This document shows, piece after piece, positions 39,445 through 55,559 of a stretch of DNA of 64,000 bases (its first letter is position 1; each line of letters begins with the position of its first letter). The notes below the pieces were generated by a model that worked only from the letters and a program-made list of their open reading frames with translations, was not told the DNA's origin and did no database searches. A program made the translations under genes and the position numbers. The stretch is from Alphaproteobacteria bacterium. Lineage in GTDB: Bacteria > Pseudomonadota > Alphaproteobacteria > UBA828. The stretch covers positions 1,280,001 to 1,344,000 of the forward strand of contig OZ243972.1 of NCBI GenBank assembly GCA_965214705.1. Reading direction: 5' to 3'.

Positions 39445-39879
39445 ATGTTCGTTGACACCAACGTCCTGGTCCGGGCGCGTTTCGAGGCGGCCCCGAGCCA
39501 CTCCCTCGCCCGGCGGCGGATGCAGGAGGCCGGGGAGAGCGGCGAAGCGCTGCGCATCAGCCGGCAGGTCCTGCGGGAGTACCTGGCCACGGTGACCCGC
39601 CCGCAATCCTGGTCTCCGCCGGTCGCCATGGACGCGGCCTTGGCACACATTGCTTCGCTGGAGGGCGCGTTCGAGATCCTGGAGGACGGCCCGAGGGTGA
39701 CGCAGACGCTCACGGGTCTGTGTCGTGAGGTTCCCGTCGCGGGGCGGCAGATCCACGACGCCAATATCGCGGCGACCATGCTGGCCCACGGCGAGCGGAG
39801 GTTGCTGACGTTCAACGCCGGCGATTTCCGCCGCTATGGCGAGCGCATCGAACTGATCGACATGGAGGGAGCGCCATGA
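39445..39879 (+). CDS. vapC: PIN-domain VapC-family toxin
   Basis: FVDTNVL, QVLRE, IHDANIAA, LLTFN. Confidence 0.9.
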   Translation: MFVDTNVLVRARFEAAPSHSLARRRMQEAGESGEALRISRQVLREYLATVTRPQSWSPPVAMDAALAHIASLEGAFEILEDGPRVTQTLTGLCREVPVAGRQIHDANIAATMLAHGERRLLTFNAGDFRRYGERIELIDMEGAP

Positions 39880-42800
39880 GCGGCACGGACACGCGGGACG
39901 CGGCGCCCGCGGCCAAGCAGAGGGTCGAAAGGAGCCTGGAAGCGCTCCGGACCGGGCTCGGTCCCTATGTCGCCAGGCACATGCGCGACCGCCACGGCAA
40001 CCACTGGCGCCACCACGCGAGCCGCGCGCAAGGTGACGAGGCCGGCGGGGAGCTCGACGTCTATGCGCTCCTGAAGACGGTGCTCGACAACTGGAACGAC
40101 CTGTTCCGGCACGACGCCAAGCTCAGGAAGGCGCGGAGCTTCATTTCCCTTGCCATGGACGCGCGCAACAGTGCGGCACATTTCACCGGGGCGATGACCT
40201 CTCGCGAGGCGCTGCGATATCTCGACGCCATGCGGGAGCTGGCGGTCGCGGTGGCAGCCGAGCGGCAGGCGAAGATCGTCGAGAAACTCTACGACGAACA
40301 GCGGGCAGCGAACGGCGCCGGGCGCTCTCCGGAAACCCCGGCGCTGGCCCTCGACGAGCCTCCGGCACCGGAAGCGCTGCGCCCGTGGCGCGAGGTCTGC
40401 GAGCCCCACCCGGATGTGCTCGAAGCGCGCTTCTCCGATGCCGAGTTCACCGCAAATCTCGCACTGGTCGACCAGGGCGAGGGCAGCGAGGAGTACGTCG
40501 ACCCGGCGGCGTTCTTCCGCATCACCTACGCGACCGAGGGCCTGCGGCGCGTGTTGACGGCAACGATCCTGCGTCTGGCTGGCAGGGGCGGCGATCCGGT
40601 GATCGGGCTTCAGACCAATTTCGGCGGCGGCAAGACCCACACCATGCTGGCGCTTCACCATCTGGCCGGCGCCGCCGACGCTGGTTACGAGGCGCACAGG
40701 CTCGCCGGCATGGCGCCGATCTTCGAGGCTGCGGGCATCGACACGCTCGACCCGGTCAAACGAGCCGTGTTCGTCGGCACTCACAAGGGCGCGGCCGAGG
40801 CGATGCATTCGGAGGAAGGCCGCGAGATCCGTACCTTGTGGGGCTACCTCGCCTGGCGCCTCGGCGGCTGGGAGGCGGTCGAGACCATCTCCGCTTCCGA
40901 GGCCGCCGGCACCAATCCGGGATCGGAACGGCTGATCCCGATCCTGCGCAACGCCGCGCCGTGCCTGATCCTGATGGACGAGGTCGTTGCCTTCGCGCGG
41001 CAGTTGCGCGGCCTCGAGTACGACGCCTTCCACGCCTTCATCCAGTCTCTGACGGAGGCCGCGGCGGCGGCCGAGGGGGTCGTCGTCGTGGGCTCGCTGC
41101 CGGAGTCCGGCGCCGAGGTCGGCGACGAGCAGGGCCGCGACGCGCTCCGGCGGCTGGAAAAGATCTTCGGCCGCGTGCAATCGGCGTGGACGCCGGCGAG
41201 CGGCATCGAGACCTTCGAGATTGTCCGCCGGCGCCTGTTCCAGCCTCTGGACGAGGCAGGAGAAGAATCCCGCGATGAGACCGTCCGGGCGTTTCGCAGG
41301 CTCTACCGCGACAACCGGGCGGACTTTCCGGCGGGGATGCACGACGCTGCCTACGAGGAGCAGATGCGCCGGGCCTATCCCCTCCATCCCGAGCTGCTGC
41401 GGAGGTTCTCCGGCGACTGGTCGGTGCTCGACAAGTTCCAGCGCACCCGAGGCATCCTCAAGATCATGGCGAATGCCGTCTATGCGCTGTGGAGCGGGGA
41501 GAGCAACGCGCCGCTGATCACGCCGGCGCTGCTGCCGTTCCGCGACGACAAGGTGCGCACCGCGCTGCTGGAGCCGCTTGACCGTGCGTTCGGGCCGATC
41601 CTGCAATCGGAGGTCGACGGCGATCAGTCGCTGACGGCCCGGATCGAGGCGCAGCGTCCGCGCCTTTCCAGATCGAAGGCGGCGACGCTGGCGGCACGGT
41701 CGGTGTTCTTCGCCACCGCGCCGCATGGCGGGGCCGCTCGAGGCGGCATGACGGGCGCCGAGCTTCGGCTTGCCTGCGCCCAGCCCGGCGACCAGATCGC
41801 CATATTCGGCGAAGCGCTGCAGGAGATCGCGGCGCGCTCGGCCCATCTCTACCGCGACGGCGAGAGCTACTGGTTCTCGCCCCAGCCGACGCTGAACAAG
41901 CTGGCCGCCGACCGTGCCCGGGACGTGAGCGAGGAACGGGCCGACCGGCGCATCGTCGAAATCCTGCGCGAGGAACAGCGCGGCCGCGCCGGGTTCCCCC
42001 GGGTGCATGCCGCGCCCGACAACCTGGCCGATATCGAGGACCGGCGCTCCACCGCGCTGATCATGCTGCCGCCGTCGGCGCCGCACGATGCCGGCGCAGG
42101 CCCCGGATCCGAGGCCGCCGCCTTGGCGCGGGAGGCGCTTGAGCGAAGGGCCGGCGGTCAGCGCCAATACTGCAACGCCCTGGTGTTCGTTGCCGCGGAC
42201 GCGTCGAACGTCGGGGCGGCCCGCGAGAACGCTCGCCGCGAGCGCGCCTGGGATTCGATCGTGAACGACGCCGATCTGAGACAGAACCTGACACAGGCGC
42301 AATCGACCGACGCCCAGACGCAAGCGGGGCGCAGCCGCGAGGCCCTGCGGCAGAGCATTCGGGGAGCCTGGGTCCATGTGCTCTACCCGGCACCGCTCGG
42401 CGAGGGTGGCGGCACCCCGGCTGGGAACGCCCGTTACCTCATACGCTCGACGCGGCTGGTGAACCGCGGCGCAGCCAAGGGCATCCCCCAAGCGGTCTGG
42501 GATAAGGCCGGCACGGACGGCACCGTGATCGGAGAGATCGGGCCCGGCAACCTGATGAGAAGCCTCGATCCCATCTGGCCACCTGATCGACCGCACATTT
42601 CGGTCGATGAAATCCGGAAGTGGTTCGCGTCCTACGTCTACCTGCCGCGGCTGCGTGACGAGGCCACCCTTGATGGCGCGCTGCAGCGGCTGGTCGAGGA
42701 CATGGCCAGCCCCTATGCCTACGCGTCGGCCTTCGATGAAGACACCGGCGCCTATGAGGGCGTGATCGACGGCAAGGCCCAGTTGCCTGGCGGTCTTGGC

Positions 42801-43190
42801 GACGGACTTCTGGTGCGCCGTGAAGCAATCCCAACGGAAGAGCGCGAGCCCGCTTCCGATGAAGGAGACGGCGCGCTCGGGCATCCTGAGGGTTCCGGGC
42901 CGAGCCCGGAGCAGCCCGGAGCGGAACCGATACCGGCCGAGCCGCTTCCGGGACGTTTCTTCGCGAGCATCCCGCTCGAGCCCGAGCGCGCCGGTCTCGA
43001 AGTCGCGCGCATCATGGACGGGCTCCTGGTTGAGCTCACCGGATCGCCAGGGGCGAACATTCGGCTCACACTCGAAATCGAGGGAACGTCAGCCGACCCG
43101 GGTTATCCCAAGGATGTCGTCGAGACGGTCAAGGCCAATGCCCTCGACCTGAAGCTGGATCCGGACTCGTTCGGCTTCGAGGAGAACTGA
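39876..43190 (+). CDS. Swt1-like HEPN + DUF499 AAA ATPase
   Basis: RNSAAH HEPN motif, LRPWREV..PHPDV, TNFGGGKTH, LMDE, YPLHPE, FQRTRG. Confidence 0.9.
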   Translation: MSGTDTRDAAPAAKQRVERSLEALRTGLGPYVARHMRDRHGNHWRHHASRAQGDEAGGELDVYALLKTVLDNWNDLFRHDAKLRKARSFISLAMDARNSAAHFTGAMTSREALRYLDAMRELAVAVAAERQAKIVEKLYDEQRAANGAGRSPETPALALDEPPAPEALRPWREVCEPHPDVLEARFSDAEFTANLALVDQGEGSEEYVDPAAFFRITYATEGLRRVLTATILRLAGRGGDPVIGLQTNFGGGKTHTMLALHHLAGAADAGYEAHRLAGMAPIFEAAGIDTLDPVKRAVFVGTHKGAAEAMHSEEGREIRTLWGYLAWRLGGWEAVETISASEAAGTNPGSERLIPILRNAAPCLILMDEVVAFARQLRGLEYDAFHAFIQSLTEAAAAAEGVVVVGSLPESGAEVGDEQGRDALRRLEKIFGRVQSAWTPASGIETFEIVRRRLFQPLDEAGEESRDETVRAFRRLYRDNRADFPAGMHDAAYEEQMRRAYPLHPELLRRFSGDWSVLDKFQRTRGILKIMANAVYALWSGESNAPLITPALLPFRDDKVRTALLEPLDRAFGPILQSEVDGDQSLTARIEAQRPRLSRSKAATLAARSVFFATAPHGGAARGGMTGAELRLACAQPGDQIAIFGEALQEIAARSAHLYRDGESYWFSPQPTLNKLAADRARDVSEERADRRIVEILREEQRGRAGFPRVHAAPDNLADIEDRRSTALIMLPPSAPHDAGAGPGSEAAALAREALERRAGGQRQYCNALVFVAADASNVGAARENARRERAWDSIVNDADLRQNLTQAQSTDAQTQAGRSREALRQSIRGAWVHVLYPAPLGEGGGTPAGNARYLIRSTRLVNRGAAKGIPQAVWDKAGTDGTVIGEIGPGNLMRSLDPIWPPDRPHISVDEIRKWFASYVYLPRLRDEATLDGALQRLVEDMASPYAYASAFDEDTGAYEGVIDGKAQLPGGLGDGLLVRREAIPTEEREPASDEGDGALGHPEGSGPSPEQPGAEPIPAEPLPGRFFASIPLEPERAGLEVARIMDGLLVELTGSPGANIRLTLEIEGTSADPGYPKDVVETVKANALDLKLDPDSFGFEEN

Positions 43191-44302: not shown

Positions 44303-45019
44303 TTACCGGAAGTCCCGGGAGTTGGGAATCACGCGCTGATTGCGCGGGTGACGGGCGGGTGCCCCGGCGAGCCGCCTGCCGCCCTGCGGCGCGGCGCCTT
44401 GGTCCGGCGTCAGCAGGTCGAGCCAGTAGGTCAAATCTTCCAGGTGGGCCGCGACCAGATGGACGATCTCGCCGGCGCGCTGCACCCGGCCCCGCACCAG
44501 CGCGAGGCGCCCGCCCAGCACCGCCCGGCGGTACCGCTCCAGGATGTTGGGCCAGACCACGACGTTCACGGTCCCGCTCTCGTCCTCCAGCGTCATGAAG
44601 ATCACGCCCTTGGCGCTGCCCGGCCGCTGGCGCACCAGCACGAGCCCGGCCGTCGCCGCCCGATCTCCGTCCCGCGCGCGCGCCATCGCCTCGGCCGCAA
44701 GCGCGCCCTGGGCCGCGAGCCGCTCACGCAGGAAGGAGAGCGGATGGGCTCTCAGCGAGAGGCGGAGGGTGCGGTAGTCCTCGACCACCTGCTCGCCGTC
44801 GGCCATGGCCGGCAGCGCCACCGCCGGCTCCGGCTCCTCCCCGCACCGGTCCGCGGCCTCGAAGAGCGGCAGCGGCGGCGCCTTGGCCAGCGCGCGGGCC
44901 TGCCACAACGCCTGGCGGCGCACGAGACCCATGGAACGGAAGGCATCCGCCCCCGCCAGGGTCTCGATGACGGAGGCCGAGATCCCCGCGCGGCGGGCGA
45001 GCGTGCCGATATCGGGATA
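44303..45019 (-). pseudogene. dnaE2: dnaE2 C-terminal fragment (OB fold)
   Basis: AGLVLVRQRPGSAKGVIFMTLEDE, terminal SRDFR; joins the 5' part as HAPYPDIG. Confidence 0.93.
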
Positions 45020-46849
45020 CCCAAGTTGGCACTTTTTCCGGTTGCTCAATGCCGGTCTGCCCATATTTTGCGGACCGAAGTACCACATATTGGGGTGGCT
45101 CCGAGATGATGCCACTATATATGTAATTGAGACGCTGGAAGCGCGTTGTAGTGCCAGGAGTTGTTAGGTATTGACGATTTTCCCTTGACCCCAGACCCCA
45201 AGCCGACAAATCTTGGCCCCTCGCAACAATCTCGCGACGGGCGACATGTTCATCAGGGCAACCAAGACCCACACCACCGACGGCAAGCCCGTCCGAAGCC
45301 ATCGCCTCGTACTCTCCCAGCGCATCGGCGACAAGGTCAGGCAGCGCACGCTCCTCAACCTCGGCACCGACTATCCGGTGCCGAAGGAGAAATGGCGCGA
45401 AGTGGCCGAACTCGCCGAGGCGCTGCTGCACGGCCGCCCGCCGCTGCTCCAAGCCGTCCCGGACGTGCAGGCCGCAGCCGAGGATATCGTCGCCAAGCTC
45501 AGGGCCAGGGGGTTCCGCGTCGAGGCGATGCAGGAAGAGGCGCGCAAGCCCGACATCGCCACCGTCGACCTCGATACCCTGGAGCACGAGAACCCGCGCA
45601 CGGTCGGCTGCGAGCGCCTGTGCCTCAAGGCCCTCGACGCCCTCGGCTTCGCCGAAATCCTCCACGGCCTCGACATCAAGGGCCGCGACGGGCGCATCGC
45701 CAGCGCGCTGATCGTCGCCAGGATGGTCCATCCCGCCAGCGAGCGTGAGACCAGATGCCGTAATGGGGCGCGGCATCAACCGGCACCGTTGGAGCCTGTA
45801 CCGATGACGGCGAATCGGGGTGTCGTTGCCCTTACACGCTGAGCGTGTCCACGGGGTCTTGCCGGAAGGCGCGCCCCAATTCCTCGAAAGAAAAGGGCAA
45901 CGACATGGATGTCTATATCGGGCTGGATGTATCGCTGGCAAGCACGACAATCTGCGTGATCGGCGAGAAGGGCAAGATCGTGACCGAGGCGCAGGTCGCC
46001 AGCACGCCTGAAGCGCTGGTCGTGTTCATGGGCAAGCTGGAGCACGAGATCGCGGCGATCGGTCTCGAGGCCGGTCCCCTGTCCCACTGGCTGCACAAGG
46101 GGCTGACCGACGCCGGCTTCGAGGCCGTGCTGATGGAGACCCGGCGGGTGAAGGCGGCGCTGAAGGCGATGCCGATCAAGACGGATCGGCGGGATGCCGA
46201 GGGCATCGCGCGTCTTCTGCAGATGGGCTGGTTCAGGCCGGTGCACTGCAAGTCGGTATCGTCGCAGGAGATGCGCGCACTTCTGACCTCGCGCAGGTCC
46301 GTGAAGGACGCGCTCACCGATATGGAACTCTCGGCGCGCGGCGTGTTGCGCAACTTTGGCCTGAAGCTGGGCCAGGTCTCGAAGGGCCGCTGGGAGGCCC
46401 GCGTCCGGGAGTTGATCGCGGGCAACGCGATGCTGGAAGCCGCGGCTGAACCGATCCTGAGAGCACGGGTGGCCCTGCGCCGCGAGCTGGCCGGCCTGGA
46501 AAAGCTGGTCCGCGACCTGGCCAGGGAGGATCCGGTGTGCCGGCTCCTGATGACCATGCCCGGCGTGGGCCCGGTCGTGGCCCTGACGTTCACGTCCGCG
46601 ATCGACGATCCCGAGCGGTTCCGGAGATCGAAGGATGTCGGCCCCTGGGTGGGACTGACGCCGGGCCGGGACCAATCCGGCGAGCGAGATATTGTCGGCG
46701 GCATCACGAAGTGCGGCGACGCAGGTCTGCGGGCCGCGCTGTATCAGGCGGCCACGGTGATGCTGAACTGCACCGCCGGGCCGAACTGGCTCTTATGGGG
46801 CTGTAGAATGTCAAACAAGAAATTCAGAACCAGCTACCACATGTGTCGG

Positions 46850-47100
46850 CCTCCCTGGGTTCGCAGGATCGGCGGCTACTCTTGCCAGGTCGGAACGCTT
46901 GTTGCACCGGTCACACGGCTTTGCGCGTACCCAACTCTTATCCGGGCGGTTGCCAGCGGCGAGACGCTGGCTCCATCCCACAATCCCGCTTGCTGCGGGC
47001 ACAGCGTTCCGGAGGCGGGGCCCATCTGAAGGTCGGCGTCTTTCAGCCCGCCAGTTCTCCGGCCACACGCCACCCGGCCCAGCGCCGGCCGCGTCCGGCT
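46850..47100 (-). ncRNA. Bridge/seek RNA of IS110-B (approximate bounds)
   Basis: Target guides GAACTGG and CCTTCAG; donor guides GGAT and ATAAGAG. Confidence 0.8.
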
Positions 47101-47127
47101 GACGCAAGAACGGAACGGTCTCACGAT

Positions 47128-48324
47128 TCAGGCGATCCTGGCGCCCGTCGGCACGAGACCGGTTTCAGAGAACCGCCACAAGGCGATGAGCAGCTTCCGG
47201 GCAAGTGCTACAACCATCACTCGACGGATGCGCCCGCGCCCGCCAGCAGTGCGCTTTTCGAACCACTCGCTAAGTGCACTATCGGGCTGATGGCGCAGCC
47301 AGCGCCACGCCATTTCGATGAGTTGAGATCGGACCCAGCCAGGGCCATCTCGGCCGATCCCTTGGTCTCGGTGCGTGTCACCGCTCGCCCACGGGGTTGG
47401 CGCCAGGCCGACCCAGCTCGCGAGTTCGCGGCGGTTTCGGAAGTCGCGATAGAAAATCTCATTGGTGAGCAGGGTCGCATCGTTTTTGCCGATCCCCTTG
47501 AGCCGGGCCAGCGTTGCGATCTTCGCCGCCGCCTGTTTATCGCTCCCCTCCGAGACATCCGTGATCGGGAGGTCGGCTCCCGACCGTGCGACCGCGTCGC
47601 GCTCGGCCTCGACATCTGCGAGCTGTCGTTCCACCAAGGACAACCTCTCCTTGAGCCGCTCGATCTCCATACGCGCCCGCGGCGGGAACGGTGAGCCGTA
47701 CGCGGTCACCACTTCCGCGAACTCCTCCTCGAACTCCTTGGCTCGGGGGGCCAGGTCGAAGACCCCTTGCAGCTTGAGCAGCCCTTTGATCGAGTTCGTC
47801 AGTGAGGTCCGCTCTTTCACCAGCCGCCGACGCTCACGAAGCAGGCGCTTGCGGTCCTCTTCCTCCACGCTCGGCACCCGCACCCGGCTCAGCACTGCAG
47901 CGTCGCCTCGGTCGTGCGCCAGTAGCGCGCGCACCATCTTCTTCGCATCGATCCGATCCGTCTTGCGCTGCTTCGCTTTTCGGTTCACCAGCAGACTCGC
48001 CGGATCGAGCACCACTGTCTCAATGGACATCTCCTGATCTAACCAGCGCACAAGCCAGAAGCCCTGGTAGCCCGCCTCGTAGCAACACAGAACACGCACC
48101 TCTCGGCCGAGAGCCTGTTCAGCCTTGGCTCGCTGCTTCTCGATCAATTCCTTGAGCCCTTCGACCGTCGCCGCGTCCACTGGCCCCAGTGAATGCAGCC
48201 CGATCCGATCACTGGCAGGGCTCTTCACTCCCACCACCCAGCTCTTTCCGCTGATCTCGATGGCAACGTACAGCGTGCTATGCTCTGCGTTGACCGGCGC
48301 GGCGGTCTCGTTCGTTGGGGACAT
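47128..48324 (-). CDS. IS110-family transposase (B)
   Basis: YVAIEIS, CYEAG, KTDRIDA, GLAPTPWASG, VALARKLL. Confidence 0.93.
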   Translation of the reverse strand: MSPTNETAAPVNAEHSTLYVAIEISGKSWVVGVKSPASDRIGLHSLGPVDAATVEGLKELIEKQRAKAEQALGREVRVLCCYEAGYQGFWLVRWLDQEMSIETVVLDPASLLVNRKAKQRKTDRIDAKKMVRALLAHDRGDAAVLSRVRVPSVEEEDRKRLLRERRRLVKERTSLTNSIKGLLKLQGVFDLAPRAKEFEEEFAEVVTAYGSPFPPRARMEIERLKERLSLVERQLADVEAERDAVARSGADLPITDVSEGSDKQAAAKIATLARLKGIGKNDATLLTNEIFYRDFRNRRELASWVGLAPTPWASGDTHRDQGIGRDGPGWVRSQLIEMAWRWLRHQPDSALSEWFEKRTAGGRGRIRRVMVVALARKLLIALWRFSETGLVPTGARIA

Positions 48325-48599
48325 CTCTTGTCTCCTGATGAGGTCTGGCGAGAACGGCACCGTAGTGCCGGTCTCCGAGTCGGCCCCATAGGATCTGAAG
48401 GCCTGGACGCTGCGTCTGGCGAAGCTCCGTGGCAAGAAGCGTGCGACCGTCGCCTTGGCCCGGCGCATCGGCGTGGTACTTCACCGGATGTGGCGGGACG
48501 GTACCGAGTTCCGCTTCACGCGCGAGGAGGCGATGGCGCTCCAGATGGCATAGGCGCGGCTGCATCCCACCGGCAATCAGCAGCGAGAGGAGGAAAGAG

Positions 48600-48900
48600 C
48601 CGCGCCTGAAGGTGGCGATCCACCGCTATCCCCTCGCCGGGACGCGGTTCCCGATGATGCACGTGCTAGCGGCTGTTGCCGAATCGCCTCTTGGCGTTCG
48701 AGCACGCAGACCAGATCGGCACTCGGGAATCGTCTTGGACCAGGCATGAAGTTGGCAGCCGCTCTGCGCTGACCACGGACGGAAGCGAGAGCCTGGCGAC
48801 GGGGACATATCCGGGGGTCCCGCTTCCTTCACCGTGCCGTGTCGACGAGCCCGTTAGCCGCCAAGGCAACCACCTGTGTCGATCATGTTGACCATGCCTG
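48600..48900 (+). ncRNA. Bridge/seek RNA of IS110-A (approximate bounds)
   Basis: Target guides AGCGGCT (48668) and AGACCAG (48708); donor guides GGCAT (48743) and ACGGAAG (48779). Confidence 0.8.
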
Positions 48901-50417
48901 CGAGAGGTCCAACCGCAGGCGACGGTGCCCCATGTTCGAATGGCCGTGCCAGGCCGGAACGTTGTGAAGATCGGTGCTTGACATCAACCGCCCCATTACG
49001 GAAGCCGCTGGCTCCGCCACGACAGCGCGGCCGCCGAGCTCCTGGGGCTGGAGGGCGACCGCAAGGCGCTGCGGCGCAAGACGCTCTACCGCATCGGCGA
49101 CCTGCTCTGGCGCCACCGGGCCGCCATCCAGAGGGAACTGTTCAACCGTGAGCGCGCGCTGCTCGACCTGCCCGAGACGATCGCCTTCTACGATCTCACC
49201 AACGTCCACTACCACGGCCACGCGGGCGGCGAGCTTCCCAGGTTCGGGCGCTCCAAGCAGAAGCGCGACGACTGTCCCCTCATCACGCTGGCGCTGGCGC
49301 TCGACGGCGCGGGCTTCCCGCGCAGTTGCGAGATCCTGCCCGGCAACGTGAGCGAGCCGGGCACGCTGCACGACGCGCTGGCGCGGCTCGAGGCGGTGTG
49401 CGGCGGCACGGCGGCGAAGCCCACGGTGGTCATGGACGCGGGCATCGCCACCGAGGAAAACATCGTCTGGCTGGGCGAGCAGGGCTACGACTGGATCGCG
49501 GTCAGCCGCGGCGCCAGGCCTGCGCCGCCCGAGGGCGGACCCGAGGCCCTGCTGATCACCAGCGCGCGCCACGAGGTGCGGGCCTGGCGGCTTGCCAGCG
49601 AGGACGGCGAGGCGCGGCTCTACGTCGTCAGCGAGGGCAAGAAGAAGGCCGAGAACGCGATCCTCGGCCTGCGGAGGAACCGCTTCGAGGCGGCGCTGCA
49701 AAGGCTCCACGGCGGCCTTGCGGTCAAGGGCCGCCTCAAGCGCTACGACAAGGTGCTGGAGAGCATAGGCCGCCTCAAGCAGCGCTTCTCCGCCGTCGCC
49801 AGGCACTACGAGATCACGGTCGAGAAGGCGGACACCGGCCCCAATGCCACCGCCGTGCGCTTCAAGCGCAGGCCGCGATACGACGAGGCCGATGAGGGCG
49901 CGGGCGCCTATGTGCTGCGCACCAGCCACGTCGACTGGGATATCGAGACGGTCCTGCGGACGTACTGGCGGATCACGGATATCGAGGCGACATTCCGAAG
50001 CCTGAAATCCGAACTCGGCCTTCGCCCGATCTGGCACCAGCTCGACCGGCGCATCGCGGCCCACCTGCTGATCGCCGTGCTGGCCTACCACGCCGTGCAT
50101 CTGATCCGTACCCGGCTGGCCGCGCGGGACATCCACAAGTGCTGGGCATCGATCCGCGAGAGCATGCGGACCTGGGTGCGGATCACCACGCGCCTGCGCC
50201 AGACCGACGGCACCTTGATCGTCAATCGACAGGACACGCGCCCGGCCGCCGAGGTTGCCGCAATCTCCTCGGCGGCGGGCGTGGAACCCGCCATCCACCG
50301 CACGAGGACCCGCCTGCCGAACTGACAGAATCCAACAAAATGTAGTGCCATGTTGGAATCGGCCGAGAGAAATATCGCGTTACATCAACACGATAAAGGA
50401 CATGGGTAGGACAAAAG

Positions 50418-51309
50418 GTAGAGTCGAGGACTGGCGCGCCTGCTGTAGGGTCCGGTGGCAATTCCGCCGCTTTCGCTGCGGGCCTCAATCCGGCTCCCTT
50501 GGCCGCGTTTCCGGTCCCCGCTCTCCGAACCCGGCGTGCCCATTTCGAGCACCGAGCTCTCCAGTGGGATCATGCATCTCGCACACAGGCAAAGCTCGCG
50601 ACGATGGCGCACGTGATCGGAACCTCCGATCCGGTCGCAAGGGTGCGCTCCCCTCAACCATCGCGGTCCATTCGTCGTCCGCCTTGACCGCCGGGCCTGT
50701 CGATGCCCCGGCGGTGCCGCGCAGATTTGCTCCGGGCGGCCCCTTCGCTTCCATTTGCATGTGATGCCGCCGGGATCTCCGGCCATTCTCGGGGTTACAG
50801 GCTTAGCCACTCCCTGGCCCTTCTCCCTTCAAGGCACCCCTCCACGCCTGAGGCCCCTTTCCTCGGCCGGCATTACCCGGCGTCCTCAGTCTTACGGGCC
50901 TCTCCGCCACCCTGACGGCCCGGCCTGTCCCTCGCGGGCTTCCGGTTGATGTGCGCGCACCACCGTCAGGGCTTCCCGTGTTGCTGCTCTCTTCCTCTTC
51001 CGTGCGTGCCGGCGCCACTACCCCGGCGAGCCGCGATCGGTGCGCATGTCGCTCTCTTCCCGATCAGCGACGGTCTTCCCCTTTTGGCAGGAGGGTCGAC
51101 ACTCGCATTACCCGTTTCGAGGCCTGCTCAGCGTTCACTCACGTTCCGGCCCGCACGGTCGCTGAGCCACCCAACGGTGGCCCTTTTCCACCAAGGTGCT
51201 TCAGCCCATGTCGTCACCTCCATGAACCGCCCTGGCTGCTACCAACCGGAGCGACAGTTGTTGGGCGGGATTCGCACCCGCTGAAAGAGAGCGCCTTTCC
51301 ACGGCGCAC
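50418..51309 (-). ncRNA. ORF-less group II intron (892 nt)
   Basis: 5' GTGCG, domain V GAGCTCGGTGCTCGAAATGGGCACGCCGGGTTC (50527-50559), 3' end CTCGACTCTAC; removal restores the IS IR. Confidence 0.9.
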
Positions 51310-51321
51310 TGCCAACTTGGG

Positions 51322-53896
51322 GATAGGGCGCGTGCCGCCCGTCCACGATGCGCGCGTCCACGATGCGCACCGCGTCCTCCTGGCGCAGGCCGCCGACCTG
51401 GCGAAGGCCGAGACGGAGCGCGCAGCACCCCGCACGGCACCCCGCGCCCTCCTCCGCATCTTCTAGGCTGTTGTCCCACCCGCTCGCGTTGACATCCACC
51501 GGGCGCACCTCGACGCCGTGCTCGCGGGCGTCGCGCACGATCTGAGCGGGGGCGTAGAAGCCCATGGGTTGGGCGTTCAGAAGGGCACACGCGAACGCGT
51601 CCGGGTGGTGGCACTTGAGCCACGAGGAGACGTAGGCCAGCAGCGCAAAGCTCGCGGCGTGGGATTCGGGAAAGCCGTAGTCCCCGAACCCCTCGATCTG
51701 GCGGAAGCAGCGCTCCGCAAGCGCGGGCTCGTAGCCGCGCGCCACCATGCGCCCGACCATCCTCTCCTTCAGCAGGCTGAGCGTGCCGCGCCGGCGGAAG
51801 GTGGCCATGGCGCGGCGCAGCGCGTCCGCCTTGTCCGGCGTGAACCTGGCCGCCTCCATGGCGAGGCGCATCGCCTGCTCCTGGAACAGCGGCACGCCGA
51901 GGGTCTTTTCGAGCACTCGGCGCAGCTCGTCGGGCGGCCCGTGCTCGGGCGCGGGCGCGGGGTAGATCACCTCCTCCAGCCCGTCGCGGCGGCGCAGGTA
52001 GGGGTGCACCATGTCGCCCTGGATTGGGCCGGGGCGCACGATCGCGACCTCGATCACCAGGTCGTAGAAGCGGCGGGGCCTGAGCCTCGGCAACATGTTC
52101 ATCTGCGCCCGGCTCTCGATCTGGAAGACGCCGACCGTGTCGGCCCGGCACAGCATGTCGTAGACCGCCGGATCGTCCTGCGGCACCAAGGAGAGCGTCA
52201 GGTGCAGGCCCTTGTGCCGGGCCAGCAGCGCGAAGGCCTTGCGGATGCAGGTCAGCATACCAAGCCCCAGCACGTCGACCTTCATCAGGCCGAGCGCTTC
52301 GAGGTCGTCCTTGTCCCATTCGACGAAGGTGCGGTCCTTCATCGCCCCGTTGCCGATGGGCACGATCTCCTCCAGGGGCCCGCGGGTCAGCACGAAGCCG
52401 CCGACATGCTGAGAGAGGTGTCGGGGAAAGCCGATCAGCTCGCCCGCCAGCGCCACGGTCTGGCGCAGCAGGGGATCGGCGGGGTCGAGGCCGGCCTCGC
52501 CGAGCCGCCGCGCGACGGCGACGGCTCCGTCGTGGTGCAGGTCCCGGATCGCGCCGGCGAGCGCTGCGGCGGTGTCCTCGGAGAGCCCCATGGCCTTGCC
52601 CACGTCCCGCGCCGCGCTCCGCCCCCGGTAGCCGATGACGGTGGCGGCGAGGCCTGCGCGGTCACGGCCGTAGCGGCCGTAGATGTACTGGATCACCTCC
52701 TCGCGCCGCTCGTGCTCGAAGTCGACGTCGATGTCGGGGGGCTCGCGCCGCTCGCGCGAGACGAAACGTTCGAACAGGAGGTCGATCCGGGCCGGGTCGA
52801 CGGCGGTGATGCCGAGGCAGTAGCAGACGGCGGAGTTGGCGGCCGAGCCCCGCCCCTGGCAGAGGATGTCCTTCTCCCTGGCGAAGCGCACGATGTCGTA
52901 CACGGTGAGGAAGTAGGGCGCGTAGCCGAGCTCGTCGATGAGCCCGAGCTCGTGCATCAGCGTGCGGCGCACCTTGGCCGGGATGCCCTCGGGATAGCAC
53001 TGCCCGGCGCCGGCCCAGGTCAGCGCCTCCAGGTGCTGCTGCGGCGTTGTGCCGGCGGGCACCGGCTCGTCGGGATATTCGTAGGCCAACTCGTCGAGGC
53101 TGAAGCTGCAGAGGCGCACGATCTCCAGGGTGCGGGCGACGGCGTCCTCATGGCCCCGGAAGAGCCGCGCCATCTCGGCCCCGCTCTTGAGATGGCGCTC
53201 GGCGTTGGCGGCGAGGCGCCAGCCGGCCTGCGCCACCGTAACGCGCTCACGGATCGCGGTCAGCACGTCCTGCAGGGGCCGGCGCTCGCGCGTGTGATAG
53301 TGGACGGCGTTGGTGGCGATGAGGGGTACCTCGTGGCGTTCGGCCAGCGCCGCCAGCCGGTTGAGGCGGCTGCGGTCATCGCCCCGGTAGAGCATGTGGG
53401 CGGCGAGGTAGAGGGGGCCCGCATGGCGCCGGCGGAGTGCGGCCAGCGCCGCCGTGAACGGCTCGCCAGCCCCGCCCTTGCCACCCTCCTCATCCAGGCG
53501 ATCCGGCGGCAGCGCGATCAGAACCTGGCCCTCGGCGTGCGCCATCGCATCGTCCAGGTGGAGCACGCAGCCGCCCTTGGGCGCGCGCCGCTGGCCCAGG
53601 GTGAGCAGGCGGCAGAGGCGGCCGTAGGCGGCGCGGTCGCGGGGATAGCAGAGAAGCGAGAACCCGCAGGCGAGGTCGAGCCGCGCGCCGGTCAGGAGCC
53701 GCAGGCCCGCCGCCTTCGCTGCGACGTGGGCACGTACCGCACCGGCGAGGGTGTTGCGGTCGGCGATGCCGATGGCGGCAAGCCCCAGCGCCGCCGCGCG
53801 CTCCACCAGCTCGTCCGCGTCGGAGGCGCCGCGCAGGAAGCTGAAGTTGCTCACCGCCTGCAGCTCGGCGTAGGCCGTGGATCGGCCGTCAACCAT
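51322..53896 (-). pseudogene. dnaE2: Error-prone polymerase DnaE2, 5' fragment
   Basis: SNFSFLRGAS, GRGSAANS, PDIDVDFEH, YGFPESHA. Confidence 0.95.
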
Positions 53897-55559
53897 AGAG
53901 CCCGTGCACGTACCAGCGGGGCGAGTCCCCGGTGCCGGCATTGCCATAGAGGCCGGCACGGTAGAGCCAGTAGCGCCGGCCGTCTGCATCCTCGATGCGG
54001 TAGTAGTCGCGCACCGCCTCGTCGCGGTCGCCAGCGCCGGCCCACCATTCCGGCTCGATGCGCTCGGGCCCGGCAGCGCGGGCGACGCGGCGGCGCACCC
54101 GCCGCCAAGTGAAGAGCAGCGGCGGGCCGTCCGGCACCTCGGCCATCACGTTCACCGGCTCGGGCCGGTCGAACAGGCGGAAGGGCCGTTGCGGCCGTTT
54201 GGGTGTTTCGGTCGCCTCGGGTGCTTCGCGCCAGGGCACGGGCTCCCGGCCGGGCGTCACCGGTCGCTCGGCCTTCTCCGGCCTGTGGCGTGCGACCGGC
54301 TCCAGGCGGCAGACGGCACCGGTGCCGAGGCGGGCCAGCAGGCGGTCGACCAGCAGGTCCAGATCGCCCCGCCTCTGCCCGCCGTCGGTGAGGGAGAGCT
54401 GCCTGGGCGCCAGGGGCTCGACGCGCTCGGCATGGAGCGCCGCGAGATCGATGCCCAAGCCGGGGTCGACGGTCTCAAGCGTCTCCCGGAACAGACGCAG
54501 CAAGTGATCGCCGTCCCGTGTCGCGCGCGCCGTGGCGACCCCGCGCCGCACCACACCGCCGTCGACCCGGTAGCACCAGAGCGCGAGCCGCCGCACGCCG
54601 AGTTCGTCCCGCTCCAGGGACGCGGCCAGTTCGGGCATGAGCCGGGCCAGCACGGCATCCAGCCCCGCCCGGTCGAATAGGGGGTCCGACAGGGCCAGGC
54701 GCTCCAGGCAGGCGGGCGGCGGGGTCATGGGCACGATCGGCTCGGCCTGCCGGCCCAGCGCCCGGTCGAGGCGTGCGAGCACCGCGCTGGCCCGCTCGCG
54801 GCTGGGGAAGCGCCGGGCGAGCGACGCGCGCGGCAGGTTTTCTATCGCGCCGATGGTGACCAGCCCCAGGCGACGCAGCAGGCGGGCGTCCTCGGCCGCG
54901 AGCCTGAGCGCCTCCACCGGGAGACCCGTGATCGACGGGCGTGTCTCACCGGGCGCGGCGATGCGTGCGTCCGGACGACCGTTCGTCGCCGGGCCGAAGC
55001 GGGCGAGCGCCCAGGCGGCGCCCGGGGTATCGGCAAGCCCGAGGCGGTTCTCGAGGCCCAGGCCCGCAAGCCGCGCCGCGATCTCGTCCATCAGCGCCGC
55101 CTCGTCGCCGAAGAGGTGGGCGCAGCCAGTGATGTCGAGGAGCAGCCCACCGTCACCGTCATCGCAATCGCAATCGTCGCCGTTGTCCACAGCGCACCAG
55201 GGCGTGAAGCGGTTGCACCAGAGGGCGAGCCGTTCGAGCCCCCGCCGGTCCGCCGCCGGGTCGGCGCGCTCCGTGGCGAGGCCGGCGAGCAGGGCGCGGG
55301 CATCGGCGAGGCGCATGCCGGGCCTCAGTCCCTTCGCGCCGGCCTCGCGGTTGACCGCCCACAGCACCGGCCCGCGCCGGCCGGGCGCGACCAGCACGAA
55401 GGGGACCGGCGCAGACGGCGCGGTCGCCTTCGCCGCCTCAGCCGCCGGCGTGTGCGCGGCCTCGGGCCCGGCGCGGGGCCTCGACCTCGCTCGCGCCCGC
55501 TCGCGGCGCAGCCGGTCGATCGGCCAGCGCGGTAGCCATACGGAAATCACCCGTCTCAC
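53889..55559 (-). CDS. imuB: ImuB Y-family polymerase-like protein
   Basis: LPRWPIDRL, LLLDITGCAHLF, GPERIEPEWW, RDYYRIED. Confidence 0.93.
   Translation of the reverse strand: MRRVISVWLPRWPIDRLRRERARARSRPRAGPEAAHTPAAEAAKATAPSAPVPFVLVAPGRRGPVLWAVNREAGAKGLRPGMRLADARALLAGLATERADPAADRRGLERLALWCNRFTPWCAVDNGDDCDCDDGDGGLLLDITGCAHLFGDEAALMDEIAARLAGLGLENRLGLADTPGAAWALARFGPATNGRPDARIAAPGETRPSITGLPVEALRLAAEDARLLRRLGLVTIGAIENLPRASLARRFPSRERASAVLARLDRALGRQAEPIVPMTPPPACLERLALSDPLFDRAGLDAVLARLMPELAASLERDELGVRRLALWCYRVDGGVVRRGVATARATRDGDHLLRLFRETLETVDPGLGIDLAALHAERVEPLAPRQLSLTDGGQRRGDLDLLVDRLLARLGTGAVCRLEPVARHRPEKAERPVTPGREPVPWREAPEATETPKRPQRPFRLFDRPEPVNVMAEVPDGPPLLFTWRRVRRRVARAAGPERIEPEWWAGAGDRDEAVRDYYRIEDADGRRYWLYRAGLYGNAGTGDSPRWYVHGLYG

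Follow-up and report, generated by a model that had tools for sequence, protein, structure and literature searches.

The stretch of DNA analysed here (the window) comprises 64,000 nucleotides (nt) of contig OZ243972.1 from an alphaproteobacterial genome, and contains a group II intron without an open reading frame (ORF) that is almost certainly inserted, in a site-specific manner, in the terminal inverted repeat (IR) of an IS1634-family insertion sequence (IS). The intron occupies 892 nt on the minus strand (50418-51309), has the ends GUGCG...CUAC, and was delimited by Rfam matches and by its precise insertion relative to empty ends of the same IS. The host IS (45020-51321, transposase on the plus strand) is 2160 bp long when intact and 98-99% identical to the intact copy L039. 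Its left IR (17 bp; 45020-45036, plus strand) is identical to the right IR and free of intron, because its outer 12-mer runs directly into CTTTT. In the right IR, the outer 12 bp form the 5' exon (51310-51321, minus strand), while the inner part (CTTTT..., running into the IS body) forms the 3' exon (50401-50417, minus strand), giving the order CCCAAGTTGGCA, intron, CTTTTGTCC... at the junctions. A preliminary description of this DNA, made from the sequence alone, had placed an intron lacking a reverse transcriptase (RT) at these positions, 12 bp inside the right IR, had noted that the identical left IR at 45020 was empty, and had read the element as one aimed at the terminal IR; these claims hold.

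The evidence for site specificity comes from the copies in the same genome (G000), which comprises 7.92 Mb in three contigs (C1-C3). A blastn search with the intron returned 11 hits, divided into three full copies, three 5' fragments (524, 179 and 106 nt) and five relatives (81-84% identity). The full copies show 100%, 99.55% and 99.55% identity (0-4 of 892 positions differ), and the intron copies are recent. All six copies lie directly after the 12-bp tip CCCAAGTTGGCA, the flanks outside the IS differ in every case, and CTTTT then follows in each of the three full copies. Copies at unrelated sites, the possibility that the preliminary description had set against its own proposal, were searched for across the genome and did not appear among these six. 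The 12-mer occurs twice in the window (45020-45031 on the plus strand and 51310-51321 on the minus strand; 0.10 expected) and 124 times in the genome, where it is followed by CTTTT in 117 cases (empty ends) and by the intron in six, the last occurrence being unrelated. Occupied and empty sites differ by exactly 892 nt without duplication, as expected of retrohoming.

One full copy lies in the right IR (IRR) of IS type A, and the others in the IRR and the left IR (IRL) of a type-B-like variant. Copies in both left and right IRs are independent insertions, and the idea that the intron gains two targets per IS copy is borne out by this distribution. The two full copies on C3 are mutually identical and lie on complementary IS pieces, which probably once formed a single IS occupied at both ends. 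Overall, the genome carries approximately 60 copies of the 2160-bp element, in two subtypes that are 94% identical.

In the proposed mechanism, a non-autonomous group II intron would be resident in the terminal IRs of IS1634-family elements. Its RNA would recognise the IS end via three exon-binding site (EBS) pairings, EBS2, EBS1 and EBS3, and insertion would proceed by reverse splicing and reverse transcription (retrohoming), with an RT/maturase supplied in trans. We consider it likely that the intron moves, or recently moved, by this route. It has also been considered that the intron entered an IS end only once and that the other copies arose passively, by transposition of an intron-bearing IS or by recombination or gene conversion among the approximately 60 near-identical ISs. 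The genome is heavily rearranged and full of such near-identical copies, the two C3 copies are identical and on pieces of probably one IS, and just six of 123 IS ends are occupied, the last of which also counts against retrohoming. Nevertheless, passive copying is judged very unlikely. The copies are found inverted at IRL and IRR, ends which share only the 17-bp IR outside the intron; since 17 bp is too little, ordinary gene conversion between them is improbable. Furthermore, copies occur in three IS variants, the copy of another species (G012; see below) sits in a variant tip, CCCGAG, and an intron-bearing IS would have to transpose from an end with its IR interrupted by 892 bp. The fit of EBS1, EBS2 and EBS3 to the site, set out in the next section, is as expected if the RNA chose the target.

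Ribozyme architecture and target recognition

Read on the minus strand, the intron begins with GTGCG (51309-51305) and ends with ...CTCTAC at 50418 (CUAC at 50421-50418), so that both the 5' GUGYG and the 3' AY ends of group II introns are present. The Rfam model RF02003 (group-II-D1D4-4) matches at 51283-51139 with 80.2 bits (gathering score 49), and RF00029 (domains V/VI) matches at 50561-50418 with 36.9 bits, slightly below its gathering score of 40. RT-bearing relatives with an equally long domain VI score 42.5-45.9 bits with RF00029. These sub-threshold and marginal scores are due to the long domain VI with an inserted arm and to the 5-nt loop of domain V. A domain VI of about 105 nt with the conserved inserted arm, together with the 5-nt domain V loop, is seen throughout the lineage (e.g., L031 and L043-L048), which takes in plasmid-borne Xenorhabdus, Microvirga, Paraburkholderia, Planctomyces, Bradyrhizobium and Sinorhizobium fredii members.

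The limits of domains I-III were taken from an RNAalifold consensus fold of 14 relatives, in which compensatory changes occur at 50 of 114 predicted pairs. Domain I comprises nt 6-334 of the intron (50976-51304), domain II nt 335-404 (50906-50975) and domain III nt 410-458 (50852-50900), after which the similarity to RT-bearing relatives stops. Domain IV is a filler of about 290 nt (nt 459-748; 50562-50851), close to the 270 nt or so estimated initially, and is without RT or maturase. Pfam searches (E<=1) with the six ORFs that overlap the intron returned no hit, and the 43 matches to the maturase domain (GIIM) in the genome all lie outside the intron. Domain V (nt 751-784; 50526-50559), placed by the RF00029 alignment and the fold, has an AGC triad, a 2-nt bulge and the 5-nt loop. 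Domain VI (nt 787-890; 50420-50523) is unusually long, a form common to all relatives examined, and is predicted by both minimum free energy and centroid folds to contain a single unpaired A, 7 nt before the 3' end. The element is a group II intron with IIB-like architecture and an intact-looking ribozyme, and would be expected to splice.

Target recognition was studied in an alignment of 11 introns that are 77-95% identical in domain I (the window copy, L029, G012, three from G004, two from G005, G047, G009 and G013). EBS1, UGCCAA (nt 221-226; 51084-51089), lies in a terminal hairpin loop and pairs with intron-binding site 1 (IBS1), UUGGCA, at exon positions -6 to -1 (51315-51310). Variation in the loop (nt 219-227) parallels that in the final 4-7 bases of the respective 5' exons, and EBS1 covaries with IBS1 in 11/11 introns, for example as UGCCAA/UUGGCA (window), GCGGAA/UUCCGC (L029), UAGUACC/GGUACUA and GAGAAAU/AUUUCUC. 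Scored as contiguous pairs ending at -1, EBS1 reaches a mean of 5.91 with its own exon and 1.73 with the exons of other introns (sd 0.87, n=106). The preliminary description had thus identified EBS1 correctly in the loop TGCCAA (51089-51084).

EBS2 is CGGGU (nt 196-200; 51110-51114), which is unpaired in the consensus fold and belongs to an 11-nt internal loop directly upstream of the EBS1 hairpin. This segment changes together with exon positions about -14 to -9, the EBS2/IBS2 pairs being CGGGU/ACCCG in G012, CGGGC/GCCCG in G004a, CGGGC/GCCUG in G005b, GCGU/ACGC in G004b, CGCUC/GAGCG in G004c and CGUAU/AUACG in G009. Because the CGGGU loop covaries with the upstream exon, IBS2 is (A)CCC at -13 to -10 (CCC at 51321-51319) rather than CCAAG. 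In five of the six copies in the genome, EBS2 pairs with ACCC at these positions.

The preliminary description had instead assigned EBS2 to CUUGG (nt 115-119; CTTGG at 51195-51191) and IBS2 to CCAAG at -11 to -7. The sequence is indeed present and complementary to CCAAG; five pairs are possible in the window copy, and partial matches occur in G012, G013 and L029. However, the assignment is hardly credible, given that CCUUGG (nt 114-119; 51191-51196) is the 3' strand of a covarying helix with CCAGGG (nt 75-80; 51235-51230), a stem that is also drawn in the Rfam RF02003 model. In this helix, 98.5% of cells are paired across the 11 sequences and three of six pairs change on both sides, while sliding the partner by 1-3 columns lowers pairing to 29-47%. 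Moreover, complementarity of the CUUGG segment to its own exon (3.86) is hardly above that to other exons (3.57, sd 0.66; 11 relatives). CUUGG was therefore rejected as EBS2.

EBS3 is G292 (51018), the sole variable base in an invariant GGGGUA_UGG motif, and pairs with C+1 of the 3' exon. A G is found opposite C+1 in the window intron, G004b, G009 and four distant relatives, an A opposite U+1 in G005, a U opposite A+1 in L029 (with the base taken from empty sites of its IS), and a G opposite U+1 in two distant relatives. Position 292 therefore pairs in 11/11 introns with a known +1 base, and three of the pair types are Watson-Crick. This position was found by eye and then checked on the 11 introns, a strict column scan for EBS3 in the first 235 nt having found nothing. 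One EBS3 scan was confounded by L037, a composite locus made of two pieces from different introns.

The EBS1, EBS2 and EBS3 pairings are shown by computation, and the corrected map gives positions to mutate. The recognised target reads (A)CCC, a 3-nt linker (AAG here), TTGGCA and then C, all of which is inside the IR except position -13. Since the target lies in the IR, every IS copy offers two targets, one per strand.

Related introns and a possible source of the missing protein

One other species of the genus (G012) holds an ORF-less copy (892/893 nt) that is 95% identical and follows ACCCGAGTTGGCA; the same copy was found again (L066) in a scan of species-representative genomes. Its 44 differences from the window copy are distributed as 14 in nt 1-458 (3.1%), 25 in nt 459-770 (8.0%) and 5 in nt 771-892 (4.1%), and all six differences in paired consensus columns keep a standard pair. 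The ribozyme core thus appears better conserved than the filler, which is what selection on the core would give, in a small sample of two sequences. Directly 3' of the G012 copy, nt 1-37 of another copy follow in head-to-tail orientation (L002 1464-1500, G012:C8; likewise in L066). This arrangement fits re-insertion at an occupied site, as the 5' exon contains both IBS1 and IBS2 in full, and would leave EBS3 (G) facing G. Approximately 15 ends of the same IS are also present in each of G012 and G005. A metagenome scan for the tip-intron junction returned five contigs, all decayed, three of which join intron nt 1-269 to IS position 172, the other two containing only nt 1-28. DNA-type contigs from three coded organisms contain both the intron and empty IS ends; these contigs possibly derive from the same strain or near ones, and do not count as independent evidence.

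More distant introns are also found at IS ends. In the window intron's own genome, the broken relative L029 is inserted in the IR of a second IS, 12 bp from its end (CCCGACTTCCGC|AACTCGG). The transposase of this second IS belongs to the IS1634 family (303.8 bits) and is only 27% identical to that of the first. The G047 relative, from another bacterial family, is preceded by CCCAAGTTTAA and is adjacent to what remains of an IS1634-type transposase C-terminus (42% identity over 81 aa). The G013 relative is preceded by CCCGGATTTCTC, the terminus of a repeat present in 21 copies; neither of the two ORFs of this repeat matches an NCBIfam model. The targets of the G004a and G005b relatives are unique in their genomes. 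In a tree of the first 235 nt, the window intron, G012, L029, G047 and G013 form a clade (89/89 support), and four relatives with unrelated targets fall outside it. Judging from these relatives, the IR-tip habit appears to be older than the window intron. Distant plasmid relatives (about 72% identical) occupy intergenic sites, not IS ends. Four of them from different genera (L044, L045, L047 and L048) have similar 5' exons that terminate in ...CCGC(T/A)C(A/C)GGGT or a sequence close to it, which suggests that this branch has a conserved homing site outside ISs.

A wider reading, which we hold tentatively and as somewhat short of an even chance, is that the whole clade is specialised on the tips of IS1634-family elements, with two levels of parasitism and a possible brake on IS expansion. 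EBS2 would be anchored on the conserved CCC of the tip and EBS1 re-tuned to positions 7-12 of each IR, which would keep insertion at 11-12 bp from the IS terminus. The ORF-less member would live in the recognition sequence of a DNA transposon and borrow the RT of a sister retroelement, and in a genome with about 60 copies of the IS it may act as a natural brake on their expansion.

Since the intron encodes no protein, an RT/maturase must come from elsewhere. The nearest RT-bearing introns, such as the 1983-nt intron of G005, show about 80% identity over nt 1-458 and 86% over nt 771-892, and no nucleotide similarity to them was found over nt 459-770. In tblastn, the filler gave a weak match, in frame and in two segments, to the N-terminal part of the ORF (Expect(2) 0.001); it was not reproduced with the protein of the sister intron on C2 described below. 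The filler is possibly a decayed remnant of that part of the ORF.

The preliminary description had called for a search for an RT-encoding relative; an RT-bearing twin of the intron was not found in the genomes, plasmids and metagenomes scanned. The 61 related genomes contain only the approximately 80% relatives and the one 95% ORF-less copy, and none of 76 matching plasmid records covers at least 80% of the query. A search of species-representative genomes with an 18-mer around EBS1 yielded 11 loci, of which one is real (the same G012 copy) and ten are chance matches, and the five metagenome contigs are all fragments. Among the best 40 of 121 plasmid protein matches, those closest to the RT of the lineage come from Planctomyces, Microvirga, Sphingobium and Paraburkholderia (51-55% identity), and there is no Sinorhizobium record.

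The related copies in the intron's own genome comprise a 5'-truncated intron on C2, beginning at position 562 of the G005 intron; a copy on C1 of the same 5'-truncated kind, broken by an IS1634-family element; a 3' fragment on C3; and a 5' part, also on C3, cut by an unrelated intron. The copy on C2 (L040:742-2040) retains an open frame for a 432-aa RT/maturase, which matches TIGR04416 with 336 bits (cut-off 300), has RVT_1 and GIIM domains without an endonuclease domain, and is 80% identical to the intron-encoded protein (IEP) of the 80%-related full G005 intron. The approximately 40 other intron RTs of the genome are only about 28-35% identical to it. Based on these comparisons, the 432-aa endonuclease-less protein of the 5'-truncated sister intron is the best candidate for a helper that would act in trans. 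An IEP without endonuclease is compatible with group II classes C-F (PMC4424553). On C1, the relation of intron and IS is reversed, with an IS1634-family copy (C1 25479-27638) inserted in the RT gene of the sister intron (G000:C1:24607-28191).

In addition to the low occupancy of IS ends, several observations weigh against retrohoming with a protein supplied in trans. No intact RT-bearing sibling was found in the genome, where related copies are all truncated or broken. The similarity to RT-bearing relatives stops at nt 458, and a shared domain IVa protein-binding site was not detected. The candidate helper gene resides in a 5'-truncated intron, and another copy is broken by an IS. The three truncated copies of the intron are no longer followed by IS sequence. 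EBS2 is weaker than EBS1 (self 4.09 and non-self 3.07, sd 0.92), partly because several targets share a CCC(G/A) motif; it is clear in 7/11 relatives and makes only 2-3 pairs in 4/11, and in the window copy, which has C at -13, it is left with three pairs to the CCC at -12 to -10. The strand-bias check is weak, since four of six copies have a clear local GC skew and are all co-directional with the inferred replication fork, as expected for endonuclease-less introns, and the other two are ambiguous. Only local skew was used, since in so rearranged a genome the noise in cumulative GC skew prevents origins from being located; insertion may be primed from the lagging strand. Finally, an RNA run (X17) holds metagenomic contigs with 90-95% similarity to parts of the intron, among them the filler, and such contigs cannot show transcription or splicing of this locus.

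Some of these points would suit a fossil, that is, an intron which once retrohomed and can now neither splice nor move in this genome for want of a working RT/maturase partner. Such a state would agree with the lack of a full-length RT-bearing sibling among truncated or broken sister introns and of a detectable shared domain IVa, with the truncation of half of the copies, and with the metagenome scan, in which decayed copies made up 5/5 contigs. It is less easily reconciled with three full copies that differ at only 0-4 of 892 positions, with a core that, between two species, has diverged less than the filler and has kept its pairing, and with the presence of an RT/maturase ORF above the curated cut-off. 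The fossil explanation is therefore considered unlikely, and retrohoming in trans, either continuing or recent, is preferred.

The host element and its locus

The boundaries of the host IS were found by comparison with intact copies in the same genome, and its own DNA in the window consists of 45020-45754, 49003-50417 and the 12-bp tip. The 620-aa transposase matches NF033559 (IS1634 family) with 254.2 bits (cut-off 100) as well as DDE_Tnp_1. The element has a 17-bp perfect IR and 4-bp target duplications, which are GATA at this locus (45016-45019 and 51322-51325) and TCGA and ACAA elsewhere. With the intron inserted, the outer 12 bp of the IR are separated from the remainder by 892 bp, which would probably cripple that end of the IS.

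The transposase gene is interrupted by two nested IS110-family elements (45755-49002). The outer element covers 45755-46791 and 48395-49002, and the inner (about 46792-48394) splits it near the 3' end of its gene. The IS1634-family element itself lies in a gene for an error-prone DNA polymerase (DnaE2 type) on the minus strand. The N-terminal part of this gene is at 51322-53989 (NF004225, 1245.8 bits, model positions 4-838 of 1047) and the C-terminal part (model positions 838-1047) is at 44303-45019. Four levels of nesting can therefore be read at 44303-53989 (DnaE2-type gene, IS1634-family element, IS110-family element and second IS110-family element), with the intron in the right IR of the IS1634-family element. 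The intron occupies the IRR, which is the transposase-distal end. It is oriented against the transposase and along the polymerase gene, so that read-through from the latter could transcribe it. Beside the disrupted polymerase gene, a 1104-aa ORF (39876-43190, plus strand) weakly matches the anti-phage-associated DUF499 family (147 bits, cut-off 1200).

The genome carries a very heavy load of mobile elements, and nesting is also seen among its introns. The 43 maturase-domain matches include a family with a 439-aa open frame that accounts for about 19 matches (16 with identical scores). An intron of this family cuts L029, and the cumulative GC skew of the genome is scrambled.

Comparison with known systems

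The preliminary description took IR targeting by a group II intron to be undescribed, which is not the case. In Sinorhizobium meliloti GR4, all genomic copies of RmInt2 are in left and right IRs of ISRm17 (Martinez-Rodriguez et al., 2014; PMC4615759), an IS of the ISNCY family (PMC10194956). The same study and a second one describe retrohoming of RmInt2 into both ISRm17 IRs and already make the argument of two targets per IS on opposite strands (PMC4615759; PMC5894124), and the authors suggest that RmInt2 limits IS spread (PMC4615759). The earlier interpretation of the window intron is thus partly supported, being right in outline and wrong on EBS2 and novelty.

RmInt2 resembles the window intron in that its natural copies all occupy one or other IR of an IS and in that its IEP lacks an endonuclease, as does that of the candidate helper here. 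A relaxed EBS2 pairing and head-to-tail copies can also be listed as shared with the lineage of the window intron. A U-G EBS3 pair has been invoked for the RmInt2 tandems, whereas the head-to-tail arrangement in G012 would set G against G. RmInt2 encodes its own RT/maturase (class D), whereas the window intron has none. Furthermore, the host IS belongs to the ISNCY family in one case and to the IS1634 family in the other, and the EBS/IBS sequences differ.

ORF-less bacterial introns are called rare, and almost all occur alongside related introns that may provide a protein in trans (PMC4424553). The dnaN introns of Trichodesmium are an example, as cited in a later paper (PMC12584367). The window intron shares with these the lack of an ORF and the presence, in the same genome, of related introns with an IEP that could act in trans. 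However, the known examples are described as splicing-only elements in host genes, while the window intron is multi-copy at a repeated target in mobile DNA. The presence of multiple, near-identical copies at a repeated target argues for mobility in trans. If the intron is mobile, it would be a naturally occurring non-autonomous retroelement that is mobilised in trans, being multi-copy, near-identical and strictly site-specific.

RmInt1 in ISRm2011-2 and other IS-resident group II introns use an abundant IS as a safe, repeated homing site, as here. The site of RmInt1 is in the transposase gene and occurs once per IS, whereas that of the window intron is at the IR tip and occurs twice. By analogy only, the intron can be likened to miniature inverted-repeat transposable elements (MITEs), which are deletion derivatives that keep the cis-acting parts and depend on the enzyme of a relative. 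Unlike a MITE, which is a DNA transposon, the window intron is a retroelement ribozyme, and its dependence on a helper is only proposed here.

Related introns seem to have tracked different IS1634 elements through a change of EBS1 alone. If the split IR blocks transposition, such introns would constitute a built-in check on IS bursts in IS-rich genomes. In literature searches, judged mostly from listings, no report was found of an ORF-less intron that targets IRs, nor of a group II intron in an IS1634 element. The finding is a new example of a known IR-targeting strategy and not a new principle, because targeting of ISRm17 IRs by RmInt2 and ORF-less bacterial introns have both been published. 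With it, the strategy is extended from an ISNCY-family IS, as used by RmInt2, to the IS1634 family.

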